Shown here in pieces: positions 432-10,150 of a stretch of 10,150 nucleotides of DNA. The notes beneath the pieces were generated by a model. It was not told where the DNA came from. It saw only the letters and a program-made list of their open reading frames with translations, and made no database searches. This stretch comes from Candidatus Odinarchaeia archaeon (GTDB lineage Archaea > Asgardarchaeota > Odinarchaeia > Odinarchaeales > Odinarchaeaceae), in the NCBI GenBank assembly GCA_029856525.1, contig JAHQXC010000049.1, positions 1 to 10,150 of the forward strand, given 5' to 3'. The position numbers were made by a program, and so were the translations under genes. How positions within the stretch are numbered: the first letter of the stretch is position 1; each line of letters starts with the position of its first letter.

Positions 432-1316
432 TTAACGCGGATTTCTTAGCTCAGCTATTTTTTTAACGAATTCATTAAATTTTCCATGGTTTTCAGTTAT
501 AGGATTACTGAAGATAACCTGTTTCACCCCTATTTTTTCTAATTCGAAAACTCGATTTTCAAAATCTTCCATTGAACCGGCTAAACCGAAGTTCTCTTCT
601 AGAAACCCTCTCATATTTTTTAATTCAGTAATGTTATGGTTTAAAAAATATTTTCGAACCTGTTGAAGCTGCCTGTCTACTCCTAGTTCTAAAGCTATTT
701 TCTCAGGTAGCTCTGAGGCTATGAACGCGCATGTGATTAAAAATTTATTTAACAGTGTTTTATCCGGCAGGTAAGCGCTTGGTCCTATAGCGAGGATATT
801 ACTGTTTTTCAACCCTGTTTTATCTATTACTGTTTTAATAATTCTAGGGGATATTGAATTAATTATTACTCCGTCGAATTTGTCGCCTAATTTAATTAGG
901 GTTTTAAATCCGATGGCGCCTAAGTAGATCGGTAGATCTAATTGGAAATCAGTATACGTGTGTAAATACTCTTCTAATAATGGAATGGTTTTAAAAATAT
1001 TTTTACCGATTATTTTCAGATGCTTTTCACCACCTCTCCCTAATCCTATTATAAACCTGTCTCCGAACGCTTCTTTTAAAAGTTTAAAGGCTTGAAAAAG
1101 CTGCAGCGGCTTATGCATGTGCACGGATAATATAGAGGTGCCTATGATTATGCTTTTAGTTTTAGAAGCGACTGTTCCGAGCACAGGGTATATGTGTCTA
1201 TGCTCAGGGCCTTCACCTAACCATATAGCGTCTAGACCGGTTTTCTCTATTATTCTACTTTTTTTAATCAATGCGTGAATATCATACATTCCATCTATAT
1301 GTAATCCTATTTTCAA
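432..1316 (-). CDS. LLM (luciferase-like) family, Mer-like putative F420-dependent oxidoreductase, paralog B (divergent, 294 aa)
   Basis: TIM-barrel LLM pattern: MKIGL start, GLDAIWLGE, I-IGTSILS, GDRFIIGLGRG, LPIYLGAIG, DGVIIN, and a C-terminal G-x-E...LEKIGVKQVIF-NP matching the Mer-type GVTQ-V-GSP end. TTG start lies 1 nt after the stop of the upstream paralog (TGA-A-TTG). Confidence 0.85.
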   Translation of the reverse strand: MKIGLHIDGMYDIHALIKKSRIIEKTGLDAIWLGEGPEHRHIYPVLGTVASKTKSIIIGTSILSVHMHKPLQLFQAFKLLKEAFGDRFIIGLGRGGEKHLKIIGKNIFKTIPLLEEYLHTYTDFQLDLPIYLGAIGFKTLIKLGDKFDGVIINSISPRIIKTVIDKTGLKNSNILAIGPSAYLPDKTLLNKFLITCAFIASELPEKIALELGVDRQLQQVRKYFLNHNITELKNMRGFLEENFGLAGSMEDFENRVFELEKIGVKQVIFSNPITENHGKFNEFVKKIAELRNPR

Positions 1317-1317
1317 T

Positions 1318-2316
1318 TCACTTTCTCCATATTTTTTCAGAGCTCATGGTTTTAATTGTTTTAAGCGGATTAGAGCTGAAGGGTGGTCCTACTATGATTT
1401 CGTCGACACCCAGATTTTTTATTTCAATAAATTGCTGTTTTAGTTCTTCAACGCCTCCGAATAAACAGAATTCGCGTAGAATATCCTCTGTAATATAATC
1501 CATAGCTTGAGATTTATTCCCTTTCAAAAATTCTTTTTTAATTTGGTTTAATAGATCGGTGTCAAGTTTTAACTGAGCTAACAGGGAATCACTCATACTG
1601 TTTATTATTGTTAAAACAACGGATTTAGCTAGTTTTAAGTCTTCAACATTATTTGATAGAATGAATCCGTTCCATAATATTTTTCTAATGTCGTCTGGGT
1701 TGCGGTGAGCGTTAACCGCGGCTTTTTTAACTATTTTCAGAGATTCGCCGAGTAAACTTAGAGGAGCGCTGAATATAACTCCGTCTGCCAGCCTCCCAGC
1801 TAACTCTAGAAGCTTAGGTCCTCGCACACCTAGATAAACTGGTATATTGTATTTTGTAAATGAAAGCTTGTAGGCTACTATTTTTTCATCCCCGTATTCG
1901 AAATTAACTGTCTCCTTGTTAAATATTTTTTTTAATATAGTAATCGTGTCTTGAAGACGGGGGACGACTTTTTTAGGCTTAACTCCTGTTAACCGTTCGA
2001 CTTCAAGACTCCCTCCGACCCCTAGGCCGAGTATAAAATTATTGAAGGTTAATTCGGCTAGTGTGGCGGTTGCTGAGGCTATGGTTGAAATCGGATAAAC
2101 ATAAGGGCTTATAACCCCTAAACCTATTCTAATATTCTTAACATGGTTGGCGATTATAGAAGTATACGTGAACGCCTCGTAGCTGAGTATATCGTCACCT
2201 ATCCATACAGTCTTATAATTGTTTTTGGAAGCTGTTATAGATAGTTTTAAAGCTGTGTGAATAGGGGTGCCTGTGGTTACACCTAGGGATAAGTCGGGGA
2301 TTGTATTCTGCTTCAT
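1318..2316 (-). CDS. LLM family, Mer-like putative F420-dependent oxidoreductase, paralog A (332 aa)
   Basis: Motifs VWIGDD, IRIGLGVISPY, TIASATATLAEL, FILGLGVG, IPVYLGVRGPKLLELAGRLADGVI and LGVDEIIVGPP follow the methylene-H4MPT reductase (Mer) fold along the whole length. The His of the canonical Mer W-I-T-D-H motif is absent, so the mer symbol is not assigned. Confidence 0.88.
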   Translation of the reverse strand: MKQNTIPDLSLGVTTGTPIHTALKLSITASKNNYKTVWIGDDILSYEAFTYTSIIANHVKNIRIGLGVISPYVYPISTIASATATLAELTFNNFILGLGVGGSLEVERLTGVKPKKVVPRLQDTITILKKIFNKETVNFEYGDEKIVAYKLSFTKYNIPVYLGVRGPKLLELAGRLADGVIFSAPLSLLGESLKIVKKAAVNAHRNPDDIRKILWNGFILSNNVEDLKLAKSVVLTIINSMSDSLLAQLKLDTDLLNQIKKEFLKGNKSQAMDYITEDILREFCLFGGVEELKQQFIEIKNLGVDEIIVGPPFSSNPLKTIKTMSSEKIWRK

Positions 2317-2323
2317 TGAGATA

Positions 2324-3103
2324 TTAATTATTAACTTGCGGTTGATAAAATTTTTCGGTTAAAGTTTTCTGGACGACCCCTGTTTTACTGAGGGCGGCGA
2401 TAATAAACGCGGCGAATAAAGCTTGAGCGGCGCGGATTAGAATATATATGTACGGGTAGAGTAAAAAGTAGAATCTCACGGTTTCAACAGACATACCGAA
2501 TATTCCATTATAAATCAGCGGGTATGAAAATATAACTGTGCCTAGGAGATTATCTAAAATATTTCCCACAAGAGCGATGAGAAAGATTATAAGAAAACTG
2601 TATTTAACTGGTCTAGTGGTCTGAGATTGTCTAATTTTTTTAAAATAATAGATTGCAGGATAAAATAATAGTAAACCTAGAATTTTATCATATAACACCG
2701 CTACTGTTTCAAGCCAGTATACAGTGGGAGGCCATAAAGGCGGGGAGATTAACTGTAGGATTATTAGAATGATATAGATGGCTGTGACTGATGTTAACGC
2801 TACTCTATGTTTCTTATAGAAGATTACTCCTGTGAAAAAAGCGTTTACAGCCGGATTGAATAAGAAGGGTAAGCCGAATAAACCTGAACCTAAAATAAAC
2901 CATGATATAGTGGAACCTAATAGTGCTGTTATAAAACCTATGAACGGTCCGAGTAGAAAACCGATTACCACTGCAAAGCCTGCTTCGAATTGGATTTCAA
3001 CTCCAGCCGCTACAGGTATACCTGGGAGTATTGAGAGCACGACGTATAATGATGCGGTTAAAGCGATTAAAACCACTTTATATGTGGAATTGTTTTCTTT
3101 CAT
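2324..3103 (-). CDS. ECF transporter substrate-binding S-component (archaeal long form); substrate unknown
   Basis: Highly hydrophobic 259-aa protein. It has an N-terminal AxxxA-like helix (IALTASLYVVLS) and the typical S-component signature VIGFLLGPFIGFITALLG. About 8 hydrophobic segments by eye. ATG at 3103; stop is 7 nt before the LLM-A start. Confidence 0.8.
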   Translation of the reverse strand: MKENNSTYKVVLIALTASLYVVLSILPGIPVAAGVEIQFEAGFAVVIGFLLGPFIGFITALLGSTISWFILGSGLFGLPFLFNPAVNAFFTGVIFYKKHRVALTSVTAIYIILIILQLISPPLWPPTVYWLETVAVLYDKILGLLLFYPAIYYFKKIRQSQTTRPVKYSFLIIFLIALVGNILDNLLGTVIFSYPLIYNGIFGMSVETVRFYFLLYPYIYILIRAAQALFAAFIIAALSKTGVVQKTLTEKFYQPQVNN

Positions 3104-3113
3104 ATGTAAAACC

Positions 3114-3151
3114 TGTGTAAATTAATACATTGCAATGTATTTTATTACACA
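3114..3151. promoter_or_regulatory. 38-bp inverted repeat, candidate transcription-factor operator
   Basis: TGTGTAA-att-AATACATTG|CAATGTATT-tta-TTACACA. It has a perfect 18-bp core (3124-3141) plus 7-bp outer arms symmetric about the same centre (3132/3133). It lies in the 99-bp intergenic region between divergent genes, one of which encodes a wHTH protein. Confidence 0.8.
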
Positions 3152-3173
3152 AGAGAGATATAAATATTTCCCG
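3151..3173. promoter_or_regulatory. Archaeal BRE/TATA promoter core, apparently usable in both directions
   Basis: Plus strand: purine-rich AAGAGAGA followed by TATAAATA (3159-3166). Minus strand: CGGGAAATA followed by TTTATATC (3164-3157). SD-like AGGTGA/AGGTGG at 3187-3198 precedes the ATG at 3203. Confidence 0.55.
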
Positions 3174-3202
3174 AAACAATAATTACAGGTGAAGGTGGAA
3201 AC

Positions 3203-3676
3203 ATGAATGAAAACGAAGTCTGGCCTTATGTGTTAATACTACCAGGATCTAAAAGCGAGCTTAAAAAAGTGTTTAACACATTATTCAAATCGAATATCCC
3301 GCTGGAAATAGTGGGATTATTCAAAGACTGTGAGAAAATCTACCAATCAGATATTATTAAAAAATTTAAAAACCATTCTAATAAGTCTATACTAAACTAT
3401 CTTAAACAGTTAGTTGACACTAAAATCTTAGAGACTGGGATAGAAAAAATTAAGAAAGAGCAGAGAAGTTTCTGGACTAAATGGTATAAACTCACCAGTA
3501 TAGGCCGCTATATATTATCAATATTCAATCCTGAAATAAACGAAGAGCAGATAAAAAACTTGATTAAAGAATTATTTTCAATATACGTGACGAAAGTAAT
3601 AAAAATAGCAGGCAATTATGGCATTAACCCATCTGAATTAAACATGCTCTTCCAAAAAGCATTAGGGGGAGCTTAA
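3203..3676 (+). CDS. Winged helix-turn-helix transcriptional regulator (ArsR/HxlR/MarR-like fold)
   Basis: 157 aa with wHTH pattern: IYQSDII...SNKSILNYLKQLVDTKILE (recognition helix and beta strand), a wing ending in KWYKLTSIGR (Y-x-LT-x-x-G), then a C-terminal helical extension. Good SD upstream. Confidence 0.85.
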   Translation: MNENEVWPYVLILPGSKSELKKVFNTLFKSNIPLEIVGLFKDCEKIYQSDIIKKFKNHSNKSILNYLKQLVDTKILETGIEKIKKEQRSFWTKWYKLTSIGRYILSIFNPEINEEQIKNLIKELFSIYVTKVIKIAGNYGINPSELNMLFQKALGGA

Positions 3677-3690
3677 GCAAGGTGTTTATT

Positions 3691-4074
3691 ATGATACTAG
3701 AAGATGAGGCTAAAAAATTCTTTCCATCTTATATAACACACCGTGATAGAGCATTATTCGAGGCGGGGGTTAAAATCGGCGCAATCTACCACCAGTTTAT
3801 AGGAACCCCTATCCCAAAAGAGGAGAGAGGCGTGAAACTATTGGAGGCAGCGATAGAGGAGAGTGTGAAAACACAGCCTTGGGTTAAAGATGTTAAAATC
3901 AATATAAAACCGAGCGGAAAAAAGAGCATATACGGTTACGATGAAATCTCTAAAATTAATTTCACTGTTTCGCTGACTATAAAATATGGTAATGCAGAAG
4001 TTGAAGCCGGCCTGGAATATAATAGAGAGCTAGAGTATCCCTTATTTTATATAAAAAAAATTCAAATATTTTAA
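3691..4074 (+). CDS. mptD: Archaeal 7,8-dihydroneopterin aldolase (MptD / MJ0408 / DUF381 family)
   Basis: Family motifs RALFEAGVKIGAIYHQFIGTP, LEAAIEESVKTQPWV and terminal LEYPLFYI. The ATG at 3691 is preferred over the track's GTG at 3682, because that GTG is part of the SD AAGGTG (3679-3684), 6 nt upstream of the ATG. Confidence 0.9.
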   Translation: MILEDEAKKFFPSYITHRDRALFEAGVKIGAIYHQFIGTPIPKEERGVKLLEAAIEESVKTQPWVKDVKINIKPSGKKSIYGYDEISKINFTVSLTIKYGNAEVEAGLEYNRELEYPLFYIKKIQIF

Positions 4075-4077
4075 AAA

Positions 4078-4902
4078 TTATTTAGGTTTTTCTAAAAGTT
4101 TTATTTTACTGAGAATTCTACCATCAGCAGCGTGAGGAGCTCTTACTAATATATCAGAGCTTTTCAACATATCTCTTAACTCATCCACTAGTTTAGCAGC
4201 CGCGGATAATATTTCATGAGCTGCAGCTGCTAGAATCGTATATTGCTCCCAGTTCTGGATTTTAAAACAGGCTTCATGATCTATTTTACCGACTAACTCC
4301 GCCATTTTAAAAGCGGCTAGCGCTCTCGCATTAGCGTAGCTGTTGTTAAAAGGCGGTTTTTCCAGTAGAAACGATGAGTCTACTATAATAGAAGGGAGAT
4401 CTATTATACCTTTCTCAAGTTTTTCAATCACTTCATCAACGATTTTAACGATTGAACTCATCACACCTGTACCAGCTAACACCTTTATTATATCAGAGTT
4501 GAAAACAGCCATTTCTGTAGGATCTAGAAACTCGCGTCTGGCGCCTATCATCGGATCAGCTGTGATAATAATGTAACCTACCTTCTTATTTTTCAGCTCT
4601 GAAGCTATTTTCAAAGAAGAAGAATCGCTTATAACAATTAAAGGTATACCTGTTTCTCTAAGAGTTTCGATAACATTAATGCATTGCGGTAAACTAGCGT
4701 TAGGAGTTATTAGAATAGTTAAATCATGCTTCCATTTAACTAAATCATTGACACTTGCCTCCAAACTTTCACCAGTCATTTTAGAACCTGAACCGAAAAC
4801 TCGGAATTCAACATTAACCCGTTCAGCTCTCTCATCGAATAAAAATTCGAATAACGGGGACATGCCGATGTTACCGATTTTTAAAACCGCTATTTTAATC
4901 AT
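4078..4902 (-). CDS. mtd: F420-dependent methylene-tetrahydromethanopterin dehydrogenase
   Basis: Diagnostic motifs KIGNIG, DERAER, FRVFGSGSKM, PN, DPMIGARREFLDPTEMAVFNSDIIKVLAGTG, AAAHE and RAPHAADG-ILSK; length 274 aa is typical. Confidence 0.96.
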   Translation of the reverse strand: MIKIAVLKIGNIGMSPLFEFLFDERAERVNVEFRVFGSGSKMTGESLEASVNDLVKWKHDLTILITPNASLPQCINVIETLRETGIPLIVISDSSSLKIASELKNKKVGYIIITADPMIGARREFLDPTEMAVFNSDIIKVLAGTGVMSSIVKIVDEVIEKLEKGIIDLPSIIVDSSFLLEKPPFNNSYANARALAAFKMAELVGKIDHEACFKIQNWEQYTILAAAAHEILSAAAKLVDELRDMLKSSDILVRAPHAADGRILSKIKLLEKPK

Positions 4903-5063: not shown

Positions 5064-5903
5064 ATGGAGGATATGTTGAAAGAAGACGGTGGAAATGGTT
5101 TAATAATAGGAGTTATAGGCGGATCCGGCTTCTATCACCTCTTAGATGAAGCTGAATTAAAAATTGTAGAAACCCCGTTCGGAGCTTCCCCACCATTATC
5201 GATAGGGTATATAGAAAATACTAGAGTGGTTTTTCTGCCCCGACACGCTCAGCCTGGAAGTGATAAAATAACTCATGCTTTACCCCCTCACATGATAAAT
5301 TATAAAGCGAACATATATGCTTTATACAAGTTGAAGGTTAACAGAATTATCGCAACGCATTCATGTGGAAGTGTTAGGAAAGAGATTAAACCAGGTAGTA
5401 TAGTTATACCGAACCAATTTATTGATATGACTAAAAGACGCGACTCCACTTTCTTTAACGGTGAGCTAAAACCTGAAGCTGGTCTAATACGGTCACCTAG
5501 CGTATTCCATGTAGATGTTACCAAACCCTTCTGCTCGGAGCTTAATAAAATAATATATCAGACATGTATTAAATTCGGCGTCAAACCGGTTAACGGAGGA
5601 GTTTATGTCTGCACCGAGGGACCGCGGTTCGAAACCCCTGCGGAGATTAAATTCTTTAAGAAAATAGGAGGGGATATTGTCGGGATGACGCTTATACCGG
5701 AGCTTGTATTAGCTCGTGAACTTGGAATATGCTATGCGTCAATCTCGCTTGTTTCAAATTATGCTGCAGGAGTTATTGATAGAAAAATCACTTTCAACGA
5801 GGTCATCTCCGAGTTTGAAAAGAAAAAGGATACATTATTTAAAATTTTAAGGAAAGCAGTCTCTGAAATCCCGGATAAAATAGATTGCGAATGCGAAAGA
5901 TAG
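5064..5903 (+). CDS. MTAP/PNP-family nucleoside phosphorylase, probably 6-oxopurine specific (5'-methylthioinosine phosphorylase or purine nucleoside phosphorylase type)
   Basis: Motifs IGVIGGSG, ETPFG, FLPRH, INYKANIYAL, GSV, QFIDMT, EGPRFETPAE, VGMT, LARELGICY and VSNYAAG, plus a C-terminal CEC. The start may be ATG 5073 or TTG 5076 instead, since GGAGG lies at 5066-5070. Confidence 0.9.
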   Translation: MEDMLKEDGGNGLIIGVIGGSGFYHLLDEAELKIVETPFGASPPLSIGYIENTRVVFLPRHAQPGSDKITHALPPHMINYKANIYALYKLKVNRIIATHSCGSVRKEIKPGSIVIPNQFIDMTKRRDSTFFNGELKPEAGLIRSPSVFHVDVTKPFCSELNKIIYQTCIKFGVKPVNGGVYVCTEGPRFETPAEIKFFKKIGGDIVGMTLIPELVLARELGICYASISLVSNYAAGVIDRKITFNEVISEFEKKKDTLFKILRKAVSEIPDKIDCECER

Positions 5904-5921: not shown

Positions 5922-6638
5922 TTACACGTACATGCCTCTATTCCCCTCTGTATCCCTGACTTCCTGCTGCTCTATAACCTCTTTCAATTCGCGCTCAATA
6001 GTCTCAGCGTCGCTTAACAGCTGTTCAGTGTTAATATTCAAGTTACATATCCGGTTAATCACGTTAATCGCGTTTGAAGCAGCACGTGGGTCAGGTCTAC
6101 CCTGCTCAGCGTAGGGTAGCAATGCTATCCCAGGGAAGTTATGAATTTCAAAATACATTAACATGAGCGCTAAAGGTCCTGTTACGAAAAGTCCCTTCTC
6201 CAATATCTGAACACCTATATCCTGGTCTAACTTATAGTTTTTAGTGTGAATACAGCGCACTATATCGTCGCCTTCCTGCTGGAATCTATTATCTAGCCCT
6301 CCTACTAAAATCGCTTGTTTAAAACCCGATGAAATAACCCATTCTGAAACCACTCTGCTGAACTCCTTCTGCTCTAATCGATGAGGTTGAAACCTGCACA
6401 TTAACAGAACTATATTTTTATACTCGTAGAATTCGAAGGGGAAAACTAAACGGCCTTCATCCATTCCTACAAACGAAGGGTTTAAATCAGAGTCAATATA
6501 TCCTATGTAGCTGGCGCCTAATGTTTCAACAATATGCCTTGTCGTAATATAGCCTGTTACACCTATACCGTGAAACCCCGTGATGAACGTGTACCCATCA
6601 TATTTTTTCTGTGATTTAATATTTATAGAAACAGTCAC
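5922..6638 (-). CDS. PAC2-family proteasome assembly chaperone/activator (PbaA/PbaB-like)
   Basis: Motifs ITGFHGIGVTGYI, PFEFY, LVGG, GPLALML and PDPRAAS, a C-terminal helical region, and a terminal HbYX motif (M-Y-V-stop). GTG start with GGGGTGG upstream. Confidence 0.9.
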   Translation of the reverse strand: MTVSINIKSQKKYDGYTFITGFHGIGVTGYITTRHIVETLGASYIGYIDSDLNPSFVGMDEGRLVFPFEFYEYKNIVLLMCRFQPHRLEQKEFSRVVSEWVISSGFKQAILVGGLDNRFQQEGDDIVRCIHTKNYKLDQDIGVQILEKGLFVTGPLALMLMYFEIHNFPGIALLPYAEQGRPDPRAASNAINVINRICNLNINTEQLLSDAETIERELKEVIEQQEVRDTEGNRGMYV

Positions 6639-6752
6639 TAAACCACCCCGAAAACAAAAAGATTAAAATATTTTTACTCCTTTATTTTTGTAAAGTTCAA
6701 AAAAGAAATTACTGATAATTAATATAAGAGTTTCTATTTATGGTGCGGTGTG

Positions 6753-8015
6753 ATGGGTAAAATTACATGTCTTGGTGGTTGTCAAGAGGTAGGCGGCTCA
6801 GGTTTCCTGGTGAGCGCGAATAATAGAAACATTCTACTAGATTATGGAATATACCTTAGAAGAAAGAATCCTTTCCCGATAACGGTAGCTCCAAGGGACA
6901 TCGACGCTATTTTCCTCACTCATGCGCATCTAGATCACTCTGGAGCGCTACCGTTAATGTATATTACCGGTAACCCGCCTATTTACGCGACTAAGATTAC
7001 CATGGAGGTTCTAAGAGTACTACTTGAAGATTATCTTAAAATCTCTGAGGCTATTCTACCCTTCGATGAAGGCGAGATAGCTAGTATCCGTGAAAATTTT
7101 GTTAAAACATCTTACGGAGATATTATTAACGTTGGCGAAGATTTTAATGTTACTATAATAGACGCTGGGCATATTCCAGGAAGTTATATGGCCTTAATAG
7201 AAGTGAATGGTAAAAGAATCCTCTACACAGGGGATATTAACCTCAGAGATACTCTATTAGTTAAAGGGGCTAAACCTGATCTGCCTGAAATAGACTATTT
7301 AATAATGGAGAGCACATATGCTTTAACCAACCACCCGCCTCGAGAGGAATTAGAGAGAGATTTTATCAACGCTGTTAACGAGGTTGTTGAGAAAGGGGGT
7401 GTTGTATTAATACCAGCCTTCGCTTTAAGCCGCAGCCAGGAAGTTTTATGTATACTTGAAAAATATAATTTTGAAAACCAGGTTATATTAGATGGGATGG
7501 CTAGAGATATTAGTAGAATATTTTTAAGGCACCCGAAATATTTTAGAGACTTCAAATTATTAAAAGACGCGCACAGCGGCATTGAATATATTGAAAGACG
7601 TAAAACCAGAGAGATCGCTATTAAAAACAGCGGTGTTATTATCGCCCCTGCAGGTATGTTAAGCGGCGGAGCTGCATTATATTATGCTAGACAGTTAGCT
7701 GACGATGAGCGGCATGGAATATTTATTGTAGGTTATCAGCTACCGGGGACGCCTGGTAGAGTTTTACTTGAAACCGGGAAGCTGCCTGTTAACGGCGGGT
7801 TATTAGATGTTCAAGCTCAAGTGAAATACTTCGACTTCTCAGCGCATGCTGGTAGACAGGAGCTTATGGAATTTATTAAAAGCATACGCGGGAGCCCTAC
7901 CATTATACCGATCCACGGGGAACCTGAGTCCTGTAAATATTTAGCTGAGTACGCCTCTAAGGAACTAGGGTTGAATACTCTTCTACCGGCTGCCGGGGAT
8001 GTTATTGAAATATAA
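6753..8015 (+). CDS. Metallo-beta-lactamase/beta-CASP ribonuclease without KH domains (aCPSF2/aCPSF1b-like)
   Basis: LGGCQEVGGS, LLDYG, THAHLDHSGA (HxHxDH), AGHIPGS, YTGD, MESTY, PAFALSRSQE, GYQLPGTPG, FSAHAG and IHGE give the full MBL plus beta-CASP A/B/C motif set. At about 420 aa it lacks the N-terminal KH domains of aCPSF1. The start is ATG 6753 or the adjacent GTG 6750. Confidence 0.9.
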   Translation: MGKITCLGGCQEVGGSGFLVSANNRNILLDYGIYLRRKNPFPITVAPRDIDAIFLTHAHLDHSGALPLMYITGNPPIYATKITMEVLRVLLEDYLKISEAILPFDEGEIASIRENFVKTSYGDIINVGEDFNVTIIDAGHIPGSYMALIEVNGKRILYTGDINLRDTLLVKGAKPDLPEIDYLIMESTYALTNHPPREELERDFINAVNEVVEKGGVVLIPAFALSRSQEVLCILEKYNFENQVILDGMARDISRIFLRHPKYFRDFKLLKDAHSGIEYIERRKTREIAIKNSGVIIAPAGMLSGGAALYYARQLADDERHGIFIVGYQLPGTPGRVLLETGKLPVNGGLLDVQAQVKYFDFSAHAGRQELMEFIKSIRGSPTIIPIHGEPESCKYLAEYASKELGLNTLLPAAGDVIEI

Positions 8016-8057: not shown

Positions 8058-8927
8058 ATGGGGCTTGAAAAAATCTCGAAAATAGACCAGTATATTCTAT
8101 TTCTAACCTTTCCGTTAATAACAATTCTAGTCTCATCCTTATGGTCCGCTCTCCTAATACCAGCTGATACTACTTATTTAACTGATTTAATACCTGAAGC
8201 GAGGGGAGGGATCACGGTAAGTTTAATCTATGCTTCAATCTTCATCTTCATCGCGTTAATCTCAGGATTTTTAATATATTATTTGATATTGAAAGATAGA
8301 AAAACGATTCTAAAATATTTTTTAGGTTTTTCCATTTCATTTGTAATAATCGTGATACTCCCAGTGTACTCCTCGCTTATACTCGAATACTTGAATTTAG
8401 ATGCTTTCACAGCTATTAGCTTATTCACGTTTTCAATAATAGCGGGTGTTATAATCGGATATATTTCAGCTTACACTGTCTTAAACGATAAAGCAAGTCA
8501 AATGCTTAGAAATATTTTCTTAGTGTTGTATAGCTCGCTTGTAAGCTCTTTCCTAGCTCTGGTTACACCGACTTTAATTCTAATATTTGTATTCATAGGA
8601 TTATCGTTATATGACATCTACTCTGTGATGAAGGGGCCTATAAGGAAAACGCTTCAAATATCTGAGAGCAAAGGGTTAAGTATTAAACTGTATGTGAGTT
8701 TTGGTTCATGGGATATTGGAGTAGGGGATTTAGTGTTCTATTCTATTTTAGTGGCACACGCTCTTCTATTCTATGGGTTAATAATATGGATTGCTTCTAT
8801 AATAGCTCTCACCGTAGGATTACTGTTCACATACCTGGTTTTAACTAGAAGAGAAGTTATTCCAGGCCTACCGATCGCTCTCCTTATAGGTATGATACCT
8901 TTAATAGCCGCTTTACTAATTTTTTAG
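8058..8927 (+). CDS. Presenilin-family (A22, GxGD-type) intramembrane aspartyl protease
   Basis: About 9 hydrophobic segments. Catalytic YD (LSLYDIYSV), GxGD (IGVGDLVFYSILV) and a PAL-like motif (PGLP) occur in the canonical order. Confidence 0.92.
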   Translation: MGLEKISKIDQYILFLTFPLITILVSSLWSALLIPADTTYLTDLIPEARGGITVSLIYASIFIFIALISGFLIYYLILKDRKTILKYFLGFSISFVIIVILPVYSSLILEYLNLDAFTAISLFTFSIIAGVIIGYISAYTVLNDKASQMLRNIFLVLYSSLVSSFLALVTPTLILIFVFIGLSLYDIYSVMKGPIRKTLQISESKGLSIKLYVSFGSWDIGVGDLVFYSILVAHALLFYGLIIWIASIIALTVGLLFTYLVLTRREVIPGLPIALLIGMIPLIAALLIF

Positions 8928-10150
8928 AGTCTAGTCAGATATCTCTCTATCTCCCATTCGCTTATACTAGCCTTGTATTCATCCCATTCTTTTCTCTTAA
9001 CTAGTAGAAAGTTTGAGAACGCCACACTGCCTAACGCCTGCTTCATAAAAGAGCTGTTTTCGAATTCGTTAAGCGCTTCGCCTAATGTCTCAGGTAAGGA
9101 TACTATTCCAAGCTTCTTTCTCTCCTCGAAGGAGAGCTTGTAAACGTTAAGATCTGTCGGCTCAGGTGGTTGAAGCTTATTTTTAACACCTTCTAATCCA
9201 GCTTGAAGTAAGACAGCTAATTGGAGATAGGGATTTCCAGCAGGGTCAGGGCATCTTATCTCGATTCGAGCGGCTGAAGGTTTCTTAGAAAAGTTTGGTA
9301 CACGTATCAGCGGCGATCTGTTTTTAAACCCCCAGGCTACGTAGACAGGGGCTTCATAACCTGGTAAAAGGCGTTTATAAGAATTAGGCCATGAAGCTAA
9401 AACCGCGCACATCTCTCTACCATATTTTAACTGGCCGGCTATAAAGTGTAACGCTGTCTCGGATAAAAAGTTTAGTTTAGAGTTTTCATCGTAGAAAAGA
9501 TTTTCACCTTTCAAAGACCATAAAGACTGGTGGACGTGCATGCCTGAACCGTTAACCCCGTAGAATGGTTTAGGCATAAATGTTGCAATGTAACCGCGCT
9601 GAGCTGCAACTGTTTTAATGATTGTTTTCATAGTAACGGTTCGATCAGCTGTCTCTAAGGCCTCCCCATATCTGAAGTCTATTTCGTTTTGACCCATAGC
9701 AACTTCATGATGTGAGACCTCTATGCTTATACCAAACTGTTCCGCTGTATCGCATATTTCACGTCTTAAATCTTCAGTTTCACCACCAGGGTTGAGATCG
9801 AAATAACCGCGTAGATCGATTGGTTTAGGTTTAGCTAAATTCTCAGTTGGGCTCATAATAAAGAATTCAAGTTCAGGAGCACAGAAGTATTTGTAACCCA
9901 TCTCCTCTGCTTTTTTAACAGCTTTATATAGAATGTAACGGGGGTCGCCTTCAAACCTTTTCATTTCAGGCGTGTAAACATCACAGATCATTCTACAAGT
10001 GGATACCTCCTCTCTACGCCACGGGATTATATTAAAAGTCGAAGGGTCTGGTATTACAATCATATCCGATTCTTCGATCTGCCCGAATCCTGTTACAGAG
10101 CTTCCGTCGAAGGCTTGACCGTTTTGTAAAGCGTCTTCAACATAACGAGT
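8924..10150 (-). CDS. glnA: Glutamine synthetase type I (GSI-alpha); 5' end lies beyond the right edge
   Basis: The frame stays open upstream of the track's ATG 10063 up to the edge (TRYVEDALQNGQAFDGSSVTGFGQIEESDM...), including the FDGSS motif. Catalytic motifs PELEFF, HHEVAMGQNEI, TFMPKP, NGSGMHVHQSL, NSYKRLLPGYEAP, NRSPLIRVP and RIEIRCPDPAGNPYL are present. The Glu of the EAP flap is retained, supporting a true GS rather than a gamma-glutamyl-polyamine ligase. Confidence 0.96.
   Translation of the reverse strand, partial: TRYVEDALQNGQAFDGSSVTGFGQIEESDMIVIPDPSTFNIIPWRREEVSTCRMICDVYTPEMKRFEGDPRYILYKAVKKAEEMGYKYFCAPELEFFIMSPTENLAKPKPIDLRGYFDLNPGGETEDLRREICDTAEQFGISIEVSHHEVAMGQNEIDFRYGEALETADRTVTMKTIIKTVAAQRGYIATFMPKPFYGVNGSGMHVHQSLWSLKGENLFYDENSKLNFLSETALHFIAGQLKYGREMCAVLASWPNSYKRLLPGYEAPVYVAWGFKNRSPLIRVPNFSKKPSAARIEIRCPDPAGNPYLQLAVLLQAGLEGVKNKLQPPEPTDLNVYKLSFEERKKLGIVSLPETLGEALNEFENSSFMKQALGSVAFSNFLLVKRKEWDEYKASISEWEIERYLTRL

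Follow-up and report, generated by a model that had tools for sequence, protein, structure and literature searches.

A divergent ECF S-component locus beside methanopterin genes in Odinarchaeum, with a conserved regulator pairing, a conserved candidate operator and a possible role in methanopterin salvage

Why should a small archaeal genome keep the gene for an energy-coupling factor (ECF) transporter S-component back to back with the gene of a small regulator, and both of them beside genes of methanopterin synthesis and use? This question is raised by a contig of Candidatus Odinarchaeia archaeon (GenBank assembly GCA_029856525.1, contig JAHQXC010000049.1), in which positions 432-4902 hold two divergent operons and a sixth gene converging on them. 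The window analysed here is the whole contig (C81; 10,150 nucleotides), part of a 1.32-Mb Odinarchaeum genome (G000) that is 93% complete. The locus can be read as a two-operon regulon under a stand-alone 157-amino-acid winged-helix protein, here called REG, in which the S-component would import a methanopterin-type molecule; we consider the chances of this reading to be about even. Two of its parts stand more firmly. The link to the methanopterin cofactor is well supported by the gene neighbourhoods in which relatives of these genes occur, and conservation gives good support to regulation by a new family of winged helix-turn-helix (wHTH) proteins that has a defined operator.

The minus-strand operon begins with the S-component gene (2324-3103; 259 amino acids) and continues with two genes of the luciferase-like monooxygenase (LLM) family, LLM-A (1318-2316; PF00296, 124.5 bits) and LLM-B (432-1316; PF00296, 67 bits), separated by gaps of 7 nt (2317-2323) and 1 nt (1317). 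On the plus strand, REG (3203-3676) is followed by MptD, the archaeal dihydroneopterin aldolase (3691-4074; ATG at 3691, with the open reading frame opening at a GTG at 3682), after a gap of 14 nt (3677-3690) that contains a Shine-Dalgarno-like AGGTG six nt 5' of the MptD ATG. MptD, a single-copy gene in this genome, passes the gathering cut-off of PF04038 (112.8 bits against 25) and covers profile positions 1-108 of 108. The converging gene on the minus strand is Mtd, the F420-dependent methylene-tetrahydromethanopterin (methylene-H4MPT) dehydrogenase (4078-4902), which matches NF002162 over its full length above the curated cut-off (329.9 bits against 297) and PF01993 with 329 bits; its stop codon lies 3 nt from that of MptD. 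Reading of the sequence places a shared control region of 99 bp (3104-3202) between the two divergent operons. An earlier note on this DNA, made from the letters alone, had described the six genes with these spacings, the convergence of Mtd on MptD and a large palindrome in the control region. All of these were recovered, the genes by open reading frame listing and by Pfam and NCBIfam scans and the palindrome as an inverted repeat at 3114-3151 with 19-nt arms that are 84% complementary. As an observation apart, the first 12 nt of the two divergent genes (3092-3103 and 3203-3214) are near mirror images with 92% complementarity, and the S-component and REG proteins hence both start with M-K/N-E-N; this may be chance.

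The earlier note had also called the first gene of the minus-strand operon an ECF S-component, and this identity is borne out by sequence, by fold and by the presence of partner proteins. The protein matches PF07155 with 35.9 bits (cut-off 26.7). Its AlphaFold2 model, built from 22 homologues with a predicted local distance difference test score (pLDDT) of 86.6, returned ECF S-components as all of its top 23 Foldseek matches in the PDB, with FolT first (7nnt_C, E 3.7e-4) and BioY, FolT, RibU, PanT and ThiT after it. A shared EcfA1-EcfA2-EcfT module is encoded elsewhere in the genome (C104:6313-8749), with identities of 47%, 40% and 28% to the proteins of an operon on contig L024, in which a homologue of the S-component stands together with EcfA-EcfA'-EcfT; on contig L089 the EcfAA'T genes lie close by a homologue. 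A separate CbiMNQO-like set is found on contig C30 of the source genome.

The nearest solved relative, weakly so, is FolT (PDB 5d3m, 7nnt, 4z7f), the only family matched in a sequence search against the PDB (E 2e-3) and reaching a target-normalised TM-score of 0.66. Both proteins are solitary and rely, or would rely, on a shared EcfAA'T module, and both would carry a pterin-arylamine cofactor. Unlike FolT, the Odinarchaeum protein is archaeal and tied to methanopterin genes rather than folate genes, and it is approximately 75-90 residues longer, its C-terminus bearing additional helices; because solved FolT chains are matched only weakly and over short stretches, no comparison of the folate-binding residues was possible. 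The cut-off of the FolT family model (TIGR04518) is missed (37.1 bits against 60), as it is by all 12 of 12 family members, and so is that of the RibU model (NF010182; 33.3 bits against 99). It is probably an ECF S-component of new specificity. Service as the primary riboflavin importer was considered and rejected because of a far stronger RibU-type gene on contig C82 (PF07155, 131.6 bits), which is itself below the RibU model cut-off with 35.3 bits and is one of three other S-component-like genes in the genome (C82, C51 and C9).

Set against classical S-components in general, the protein is 60-90 residues longer and has extra helices, and its close family (an alignment of 12) keeps the invariant polar residues E40, D139-K140, N181, D184 and R224. 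These features would suit a protein that is not a transporter and serves instead as a membrane subunit or anchor for assembly of the methanopterin side chain, as would the embedding of the gene among biosynthetic genes in family f33 and in Bathyarchaeota BA2. Operons shared by homologues with EcfA-EcfA'-EcfT, a fold that matches transport S-components throughout, and the failure to detect any enzyme-like family or motif in the protein all point away from an anchor, and we regard this reading as very improbable.

Opposite the S-component gene stands REG. No Pfam family is matched by it above threshold (PadR reaches 13 bits against 27), and members of its family give weak matches only, to HTH_27, HTH_24 and HTH_5. 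Its profile-based AlphaFold2 model (pLDDT 89.8) consists of a helix-helix-helix unit, a long beta hairpin and three C-terminal helices, and nearly all of its 50 best Foldseek matches are regulators of transcription with a wHTH, led by PadR, MarR, AdcR and MepR (probability 1.00, E approximately 2e-3). The wHTH call of the earlier note is thereby upheld, with a PadR/MarR-like fold. A homodimer is supported, not proven, by structure prediction: the model scores 0.47 against 0.01 for the best control, a mark attained by 20 of 30 proteins whose structures were solved as pairs and by 1 of 23 with single-chain structures, with a symmetric interface at residues 114-156, agreement of three runs in at least 44% of contacts and a partner pLDDT of at least 73. 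REG resembles the PadR/MarR repressors in its fold and its predicted C-terminal helical dimer interface, and its palindromic candidate operator would likewise overlap the regulated promoter. It differs from them in the lack of a Pfam family, in tandem 14-bp palindromes 20 bp apart and in the presence of a kinase in about half of its family.

This kinase is a PfkB domain. Among 70 representatives of the REG family about half are fused to it, and outside Odinarchaeia the fusion protein, of approximately 475 amino acids, has the REG domain at the N-terminus and a ribokinase-like PfkB kinase (PF00294, 160-190 bits) at the C-terminus. Vitamin transporters controlled by a DNA-binding domain fused to a kinase that traps the imported vitamin are represented by RibU/RbkR and PnuC/NadR, and RbkR is reportedly an archaeal wHTH-riboflavin kinase regulator paired with RibU (said to have been described by Rodionova and colleagues in 2017). 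The layout of RbkR and RibU is that of REG-PfkB divergent from the transporter gene in Baldrarchaeota and in families f2, f16 and f6. REG-PfkB is distinct from RbkR and NadR in that the kinase is PfkB ribokinase-like, neither a CTP-dependent riboflavin kinase nor a nicotinamide riboside kinase, and in that its wHTH family is a separate one; in Odinarchaeum, additionally, the kinase domain is lost and a canonical RibU-like gene is found elsewhere in the genome, the C82 gene already mentioned.

The pairing of REG with the S-component is a widely conserved one. A profile search recovered full-length relatives of the S-component in 68 of 400 Asgard genomes, and a REG-PfkB gene was divergently adjacent in 12 of the 24 S-component loci inspected. 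The divergent pair is kept in several Asgard families and in two metagenomic contigs without assigned lineage; Odinarchaeum, Baldrarchaeota, f2 (the sister family of Odinarchaeum), f16, f6, L024 and L097 all have it, with S-component identities of 31-42%. The whole block is syntenic in the three sister genomes of the Odinarchaeum genus (the four are G000-G003, of which G002 is closed). On L096, a diverged Odinarchaeia contig, the order is Mtd, MptD-REG divergent from S-component-LLM-A-LLM-B-Nop5-fibrillarin, at approximately 42-58% identity to Odinarchaeum, and both the REG-MptD pair and the convergence of MptD and Mtd are kept. In Baldrarchaeota, f2 and f16 the place of the LLM genes 3' of the S-component is taken by NT1 and NT2, two paralogous Pol-beta-type nucleotidyltransferases of approximately 345 amino acids, and the S-component shares an operon with NT1/NT2 in four Asgard families. 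Nop5-fibrillarin lies 3' of the S-component operon in Odinarchaeia and in G005, a genome of family f2, alike; therefore, the LLM pair and the NT pair fill one syntenic slot. The module that the earlier note had drawn, an S-component with two LLM proteins, is thus sound in architecture and gene assignments, and specific to Odinarchaeia with regard to the LLM pair, elsewhere being represented by two nucleotidyltransferases and a kinase-fused regulator. In G005 itself, a convergent MptD/Mtd pair stands at the start of one contig (C31:503-1726), and REG-PfkB runs off the start of another (C116:3-995). These two contigs may abut, which would reproduce the REG-MptD/Mtd order of Odinarchaeum.

What kind of molecule is at issue can be approached through the neighbouring genes, and here the conservation check proposed with the earlier note came out largely favourably, as the S-component recurs beside H4MPT and one-carbon (C1) genes in several lineages. 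In Odinarchaeia it is near MptD and Mtd. In Baldrarchaeota, Ftr, NT2, NT1 and the S-component are divergent from REG-PfkB, a canonical Mer (444.7 bits), Mtd and FwdDBAC, and a CofE-like gene lies on the Ftr side. The order in f33 is FwdDBAC, Mch, an MptN-like ATP-grasp gene (260.8 bits, against only 90 for CofF), a CitG-like gene, the S-component, a B12-binding radical SAM gene, NT1 and Ftr, after which come EcfT, EcfAA' and a second S-component-like gene. On the metagenomic contig L097, which has no assigned lineage, a stand-alone REG is divergent from an operon of the S-component (42% identical) and Mch (339 bits). Bathyarchaeota BA2 has CitG-like, S-component-like and NT1 genes adjacent to each other, the S-component-like protein being matched by hhalign with 98.6% probability over the first 95 residues.

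The nucleotidyltransferases show the same association. The NT1 family comprises 3287 matches, with more than 50% identity between phyla, and a sequence search of NT1 against the PDB gave no match. NT1 lies directly 3' of a CitG-like gene in Methanomethylicia, and on contig L095 directly 3' of an MptH-like dihydropteroate-synthase-like protein (422.8 bits) and DmrX (294.5 bits), genes that adjoin MptE-like, MptA and dihydropteroate synthase (DHPS) genes. Across four such neighbourhoods (L095:434-9035, L094:6988-9032, L093:5772-10886 and L089:5278-12116), the neighbours of the NT1/NT2 family include CitG-like, MptH-like, DmrX, MptE-like, MptA, MptN-like and Mch genes. Recurrence of the NT family or the S-component beside methanopterin genes is therefore seen in several lineages, two of them outside the Asgards (Bathyarchaeota BA2 and, for the S-component, L097). 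To our knowledge, several steps of methanopterin side-chain synthesis are still without an assigned enzyme, and from their neighbourhoods NT1 and NT2 are candidates for such steps. In other lineages, a CitG-like triphosphoribosyl transferase beside Pol-beta-type nucleotidyltransferases recalls CitG/CitX and MdcB/MdcG, and by analogy chemistry of the CitG/CitX type would fit the alpha-ribosyl-phosphate link of the methanopterin side chain. The difference is that the CitG-like and NT1/NT2 genes are outside the window, with NT1/NT2 not found in Odinarchaeum.

The same comparison brings in a further explanation, that the cargo of the S-component is a different small molecule, for instance a riboside, a nucleoside or an unrelated vitamin, which would be phosphorylated by PfkB elsewhere, and that the C1 neighbours reflect inherited order or general clustering of cofactor genes. 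The nearest models of the fused kinase are ribokinase and ribose-1-phosphate kinase (150 and 134 bits), the catalytic signature DTxGAGD is kept in 15 of the 21 fused members checked, every family assignment of the S-component is under the curated subfamily cut-offs, and in f6, f16 and L024 no C1 genes were found next to the REG/S-component pair, all of which would agree with such a cargo. It accounts poorly for a methanopterin linkage that recurs in differing gene orders, also outside the Asgards, and for the S-component in operons with NT1/NT2, given that NT1 is found inside core methanopterin clusters elsewhere. We consider a cargo of this kind unlikely, and place it third among the readings of the locus.

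How the two operons would be controlled can be read from the 99-bp region. The inverted repeat is better resolved as two tandem exact TGTA-N6-TACA boxes of 14 bp: box 1 at 3116-3129, 12 nt from the S-component start codon, and box 2 at 3136-3149, starting 20 bp after the start of box 1. This start-to-start spacing of exactly 20 bp is seen in all four Odinarchaeum genomes, in L096, in three Baldrarchaeota genomes and in G005, and across the lineages that conserve the pair the boxes lie 12-22 nt from the S-component start codon, while the S-component proteins of these lineages are only about 40% identical. The boxes are exact in 4 of 4 Odinarchaeum genomes and in the three Baldrarchaeota genomes; each box has one mismatch in G005, and one box has one mismatch in L096. 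A contig with S-component and NT1 genes (L098) has a single exact box, and related variants occur in f16 and f6.

Exact TGTA-N6-TACA boxes are under-represented about four-fold in the source genome, 10 being present against approximately 42 in mononucleotide shuffles, and a genome-wide scan found the exact tandem pair at this locus only, every other tandem pair having at least two mismatches. Because the genome has so few exact boxes and a single mismatch-free tandem, the pair is more than chance. A wider regulon was considered and rejected: the sole other intergenic exact box is a single one between lipoate genes (C24:6493, LplA/radical SAM) and was judged to be chance, so that the REG regulon in this genome appears to be the locus alone. 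Just downstream of the boxes in the direction of REG lies an A/T-rich, TATA-like element (ATATAAATATTT, 3158-3169), approximately 34-45 nt 5' of the REG ATG, which probably serves as the promoter of REG and MptD; that of the S-component operon would lie within or adjoining the boxes. The tandem boxes are presumably bound by REG dimers. Since they would part the S-component start codon from whatever promoter element lies upstream, the effect of REG on this operon would most likely be repression.

Whether Odinarchaeum would have use for an imported methanopterin depends on what it can make, and gene absences were judged here with family models only. MptA (179 bits), MptD and a DHPS-like pterin-binding protein are encoded, as are H4MPT-using Mch, Mtd and Ftr and a Mer-like protein on contig C109 (263.8 bits against a cut-off of 276). 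With MptA, MptD and the H4MPT enzymes present, the genus therefore uses H4MPT and can make the pterin head group. Auxotrophy for neopterin or another simple pterin was accordingly rejected: in a set of 41 related genomes, 11 carriers of the S-component and 30 non-carriers, MptA is encoded in the source genome and by 9 of the 11 carriers, among them all those of Odinarchaeum, f2 and Baldrarchaeota, and the two carriers without it are only 76-77% complete. Import of a neopterin-type pterin to feed MptD, one of the cargoes envisaged in the earlier note, is unlikely, since both MptA and MptD are present. Of its broader proposal of pterin or C1-cofactor salvage, the methanopterin link is upheld by the neighbourhoods, with FolT as the nearest solved relative, weakly, and the simple pterin cargo falls away.

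Gaps are found further along the pathway. Ribofuranosylaminobenzene 5'-phosphate (RFAP) synthase, MptG, was not found in 4 of 4 Odinarchaeum genomes, one of them closed, and neither were NT1 and NT2. Dihydromethanopterin reductase of the MJ0208/DmrX type was not found in G000 or the closed G002, the genomes searched for it, where the only matches to PF02441 are proteins of approximately 190 and 423 amino acids, the long ones being of CoaBC size. A 187-amino-acid flavoprotein in G000 was examined as a candidate DmrX and rejected, as it is UbiX beside UbiD. This UbiX (240.6 bits) and UbiD (405.6 bits) pair, at C39:926-2804 (L100), is in its own right a prenyl-flavin mononucleotide decarboxylase system in a small genome. 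The CitG-like gene is intact in G001 (C3:50612-51451) and G003 (C79:1219-2061), carries one in-frame TGA in the closed G002 (C1:1250804-1251709) and was not found in G000; together with NT1/NT2, this pattern may represent decay of side-chain assembly genes in Odinarchaeum. Among the 41 genomes MptG is present in 1 of 11 carriers and 16 of 30 non-carriers (Fisher 0.014, a figure inflated by shared ancestry). The MptG, NT1/NT2 and DmrX-type gaps make it attractive to assume salvage of methanopterin, either whole or as the arylamine side chain, and they also make the Mer-like LLM proteins attractive as reductases for an imported oxidised form.

A second cofactor shows gaps in the same genomes. 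CofG/H, for the synthesis of FO (the 8-hydroxy-5-deazaflavin head group of F420), went undetected in each of the four Odinarchaeum genomes, the closed one among them, and lumazine synthase (PF00885) was found neither in these four nor in 3 of 3 genomes of the sister family f2, so that the FO precursor cannot be made. The genes that build the F420 tail are present: an operon at C86:2019-4285 (L041) encodes an FbiB-C-terminal-like nitroreductase domain (143 bits), CofD and CofC (141.8 bits against 105), and CofE is encoded at C95:2644-3402 (L092; 269 bits against 180). Odinarchaeum thus looks like an FO auxotroph that would still make F420, and the stand-alone FbiB-C-terminal-like domain hints at a route of the dehydro-F420 type. 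The missing lumazine synthase and the RibU-type S-component (C82:26911-27489; L044:6912-7490) also suggest riboflavin auxotrophy with uptake. With CofG/H and lumazine synthase missing and the tail genes present, FO must come from outside.

The S-component could therefore be an importer of FO or F420, with CofC, CofD and CofE completing F420 and the LLM proteins as F420-dependent partners. CofD without CofH is found in 10 of 11 S-component carriers against 8 of 30 non-carriers; the sole above-threshold Pfam match of the S-component is a RibU-type family; and LLM-A, LLM-B and the neighbouring Mtd belong to F420-dependent families. In a review of F420, a transporter is named once, as a putative exporter, and no importer of FO or F420 is named, and Odin- and Thorarchaeota metagenome-assembled genomes are reported to hold only part of the F420 biosynthesis genes (PMC8498797). 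On the other side, the genes that accompany the S-component in operons elsewhere are ones specific for methanopterin or methanofuran and not for F420 (NT1/NT2, Mch, CitG-like, MptN-like, B12 radical SAM, Ftr and Fwd). G005 carries the module, yet no CofD was found in any of the three genomes that represent its genus, and the eight CofD-positive, CofH-negative non-carriers do without the S-component. The three other S-component-like genes of the source genome could serve FO or riboflavin. Additionally, we know of no place in the chemistry from FO to F420 for a ribokinase-like kinase or for nucleotidyltransferases. Because the NT1/NT2, Mch, CitG-like and MptN-like partners and the absence of CofD in the G005 genus are left unexplained, the import of FO or F420 is ranked second, not far behind the import of a methanopterin-type molecule; it is a doubtful reading.

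The two LLM proteins bear on both cofactors. Their best NCBIfam models are those of Mer, with 167.8 bits for LLM-A and 79.8 for LLM-B to NF002619 (cut-off 276) and 135.9 and 66.6 bits to TIGR03555 (cut-off 348.7), and their best PDB matches are also Mer structures (8qq8, E 1.9e-34, and 8qpl, E 4.7e-17, respectively). The description as two Mer-like reductases consequently needs to be split: Mer is the nearest family and PDB match, and both proteins fail the Mer cut-offs and lack the Mer segment W-I/L-T-D/H-H after strand 2. This segment reads WITDH in the canonical Mer of Baldrarchaeota and WLTHH in the C109 protein of the source genome; LLM-A has WIGDD and LLM-B has WLGEG. With Mer (PDB 1z69, 8qq8) they share the TIM-barrel LLM fold family and the motifs GxGxG and YLGA.GPK; apart from low scores and the changed segment, LLM-B differs by an internal deletion of 24 residues. 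The deletion and the altered motifs are kept in the aligned sister genomes, and the C109 protein is the better Mer candidate of this genome. Close orthologues of LLM-A (48-83% identity) were found only in Odinarchaeia, beside the S-component gene where this was checked (the sister genomes and L096), others being on contigs that agree in length with those of S-component homologues, and an orthologue of LLM-B (42% identity) occupies the equivalent position in L096. For both proteins, F420-class models of the LLM family account for nearly all the strongest NCBIfam matches and F420 enzymes for the best PDB matches, and they are probably F420-dependent oxidoreductases. The spacing of only 1 nt between the genes points to translational coupling and perhaps to a heteromer of their products. 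The reaction of these proteins may be the reduction of methanopterin or dihydromethanopterin.

A more detailed form of methanopterin salvage can be proposed, and only tentatively. In it, methanopterin or its arylamine side chain would be taken from the surroundings through the S-component, by Odinarchaeia and, with a different set of enzymes, by Baldrarchaeota and other Asgards; in Odinarchaeia, LLM-A/LLM-B would be an F420H2-dependent reductase that brings imported methanopterin or dihydromethanopterin back to the tetrahydro form in place of the missing DmrX-type enzyme, and REG would be a ligand-sensing repressor. In the general reading, held at roughly even chances, dimeric REG most likely binds the tandem boxes, which would cover the promoter and the start of the S-component operon and lie directly 5' of the promoter of REG, and it probably represses the operon until a ligand is present. 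Under its control would stand the genes of the S-component, LLM-A and LLM-B and, on the opposite strand, those of REG and MptD. The shared EcfAA'T module of the genome would energise the S-component, whose cargo would most likely be whole methanopterin, dihydromethanopterin or an arylamine side-chain fragment, a simple pterin being less likely; LLM-A and LLM-B would reduce this cargo or process it otherwise, and the pterin half made de novo would come from MptD.

Several points weigh against methanopterin uptake. Classification of the S-component is weak, falling below the curated FolT and RibU subfamily cut-offs. A strict anticorrelation of S-component and RFAP synthase was rejected, as it holds for the close subfamily only and genomes G329, G229, G129 and G016 have both. 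De novo synthesis in Odinarchaeum may be complete through unrecognised enzymes, in view of MptA, MptD, the DHPS-like protein and a CitG-like gene in 3 of 4 genomes. The contexts without C1 genes in f6, f16 and L024 count here as well, and the adjacency of REG and Mtd in Odinarchaeia, f2 and Baldrarchaeota may be inherited synteny and not independent recurrence. All 11 carriers are without CofH and CofD is present in 10 of them, a pattern that an FO cargo would explain just as well, and the Mer-like LLM proteins, as probable F420 enzymes, cannot separate the two cofactors.

A literature search found no described importer or dedicated regulator for methanopterin or FO, and searches on archaeal ECF transport of F420 or methanopterin, and on CitG or nucleotidyltransferases in methanopterin synthesis, gave nothing relevant. 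Should the more detailed form of salvage be true, the locus would hold the first transporter for methanopterin, the first regulator that responds to it and a dihydromethanopterin reductase of a new type. The wHTH regulator family, which elsewhere is a regulator-kinase fusion, is new, and the LLM proteins are diverged Mer paralogues. The locus offers testable parts in a candidate transporter, a compact regulator with a conserved candidate operator and two candidate reductases, to which sister lineages add a kinase and a pair of nucleotidyltransferases linked with this pathway. A further point of interest is the dependence of small-genome Asgard archaea on cofactors from neighbouring organisms; the fact that Odinarchaeum is apparently without FO synthase, lumazine synthase and RFAP synthase matters for culturing attempts and for models of syntrophy.

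The rest of the window is occupied by other genes. The N-terminus of Nop5 (3-338) precedes the locus, and beyond Mtd come an MTAP-like phosphorylase (5064-5903; 268.9 bits against a cut-off of 274.85), a PAC2 proteasome assembly chaperone (5922-6638), a beta-CASP/metallo-beta-lactamase RNase of 421 amino acids (6750-8015), a presenilin-like intramembrane protease (8058-8927; PF01080, 61.6 bits) and glutamine synthetase (8924-10063). The RNase, which matches the aCPSF1 model at positions 176-628 only, is shortened and has no N-terminal KH domains; with the type VII CRISPR Cas14 model it reaches 244.6 bits, below the threshold of 800.

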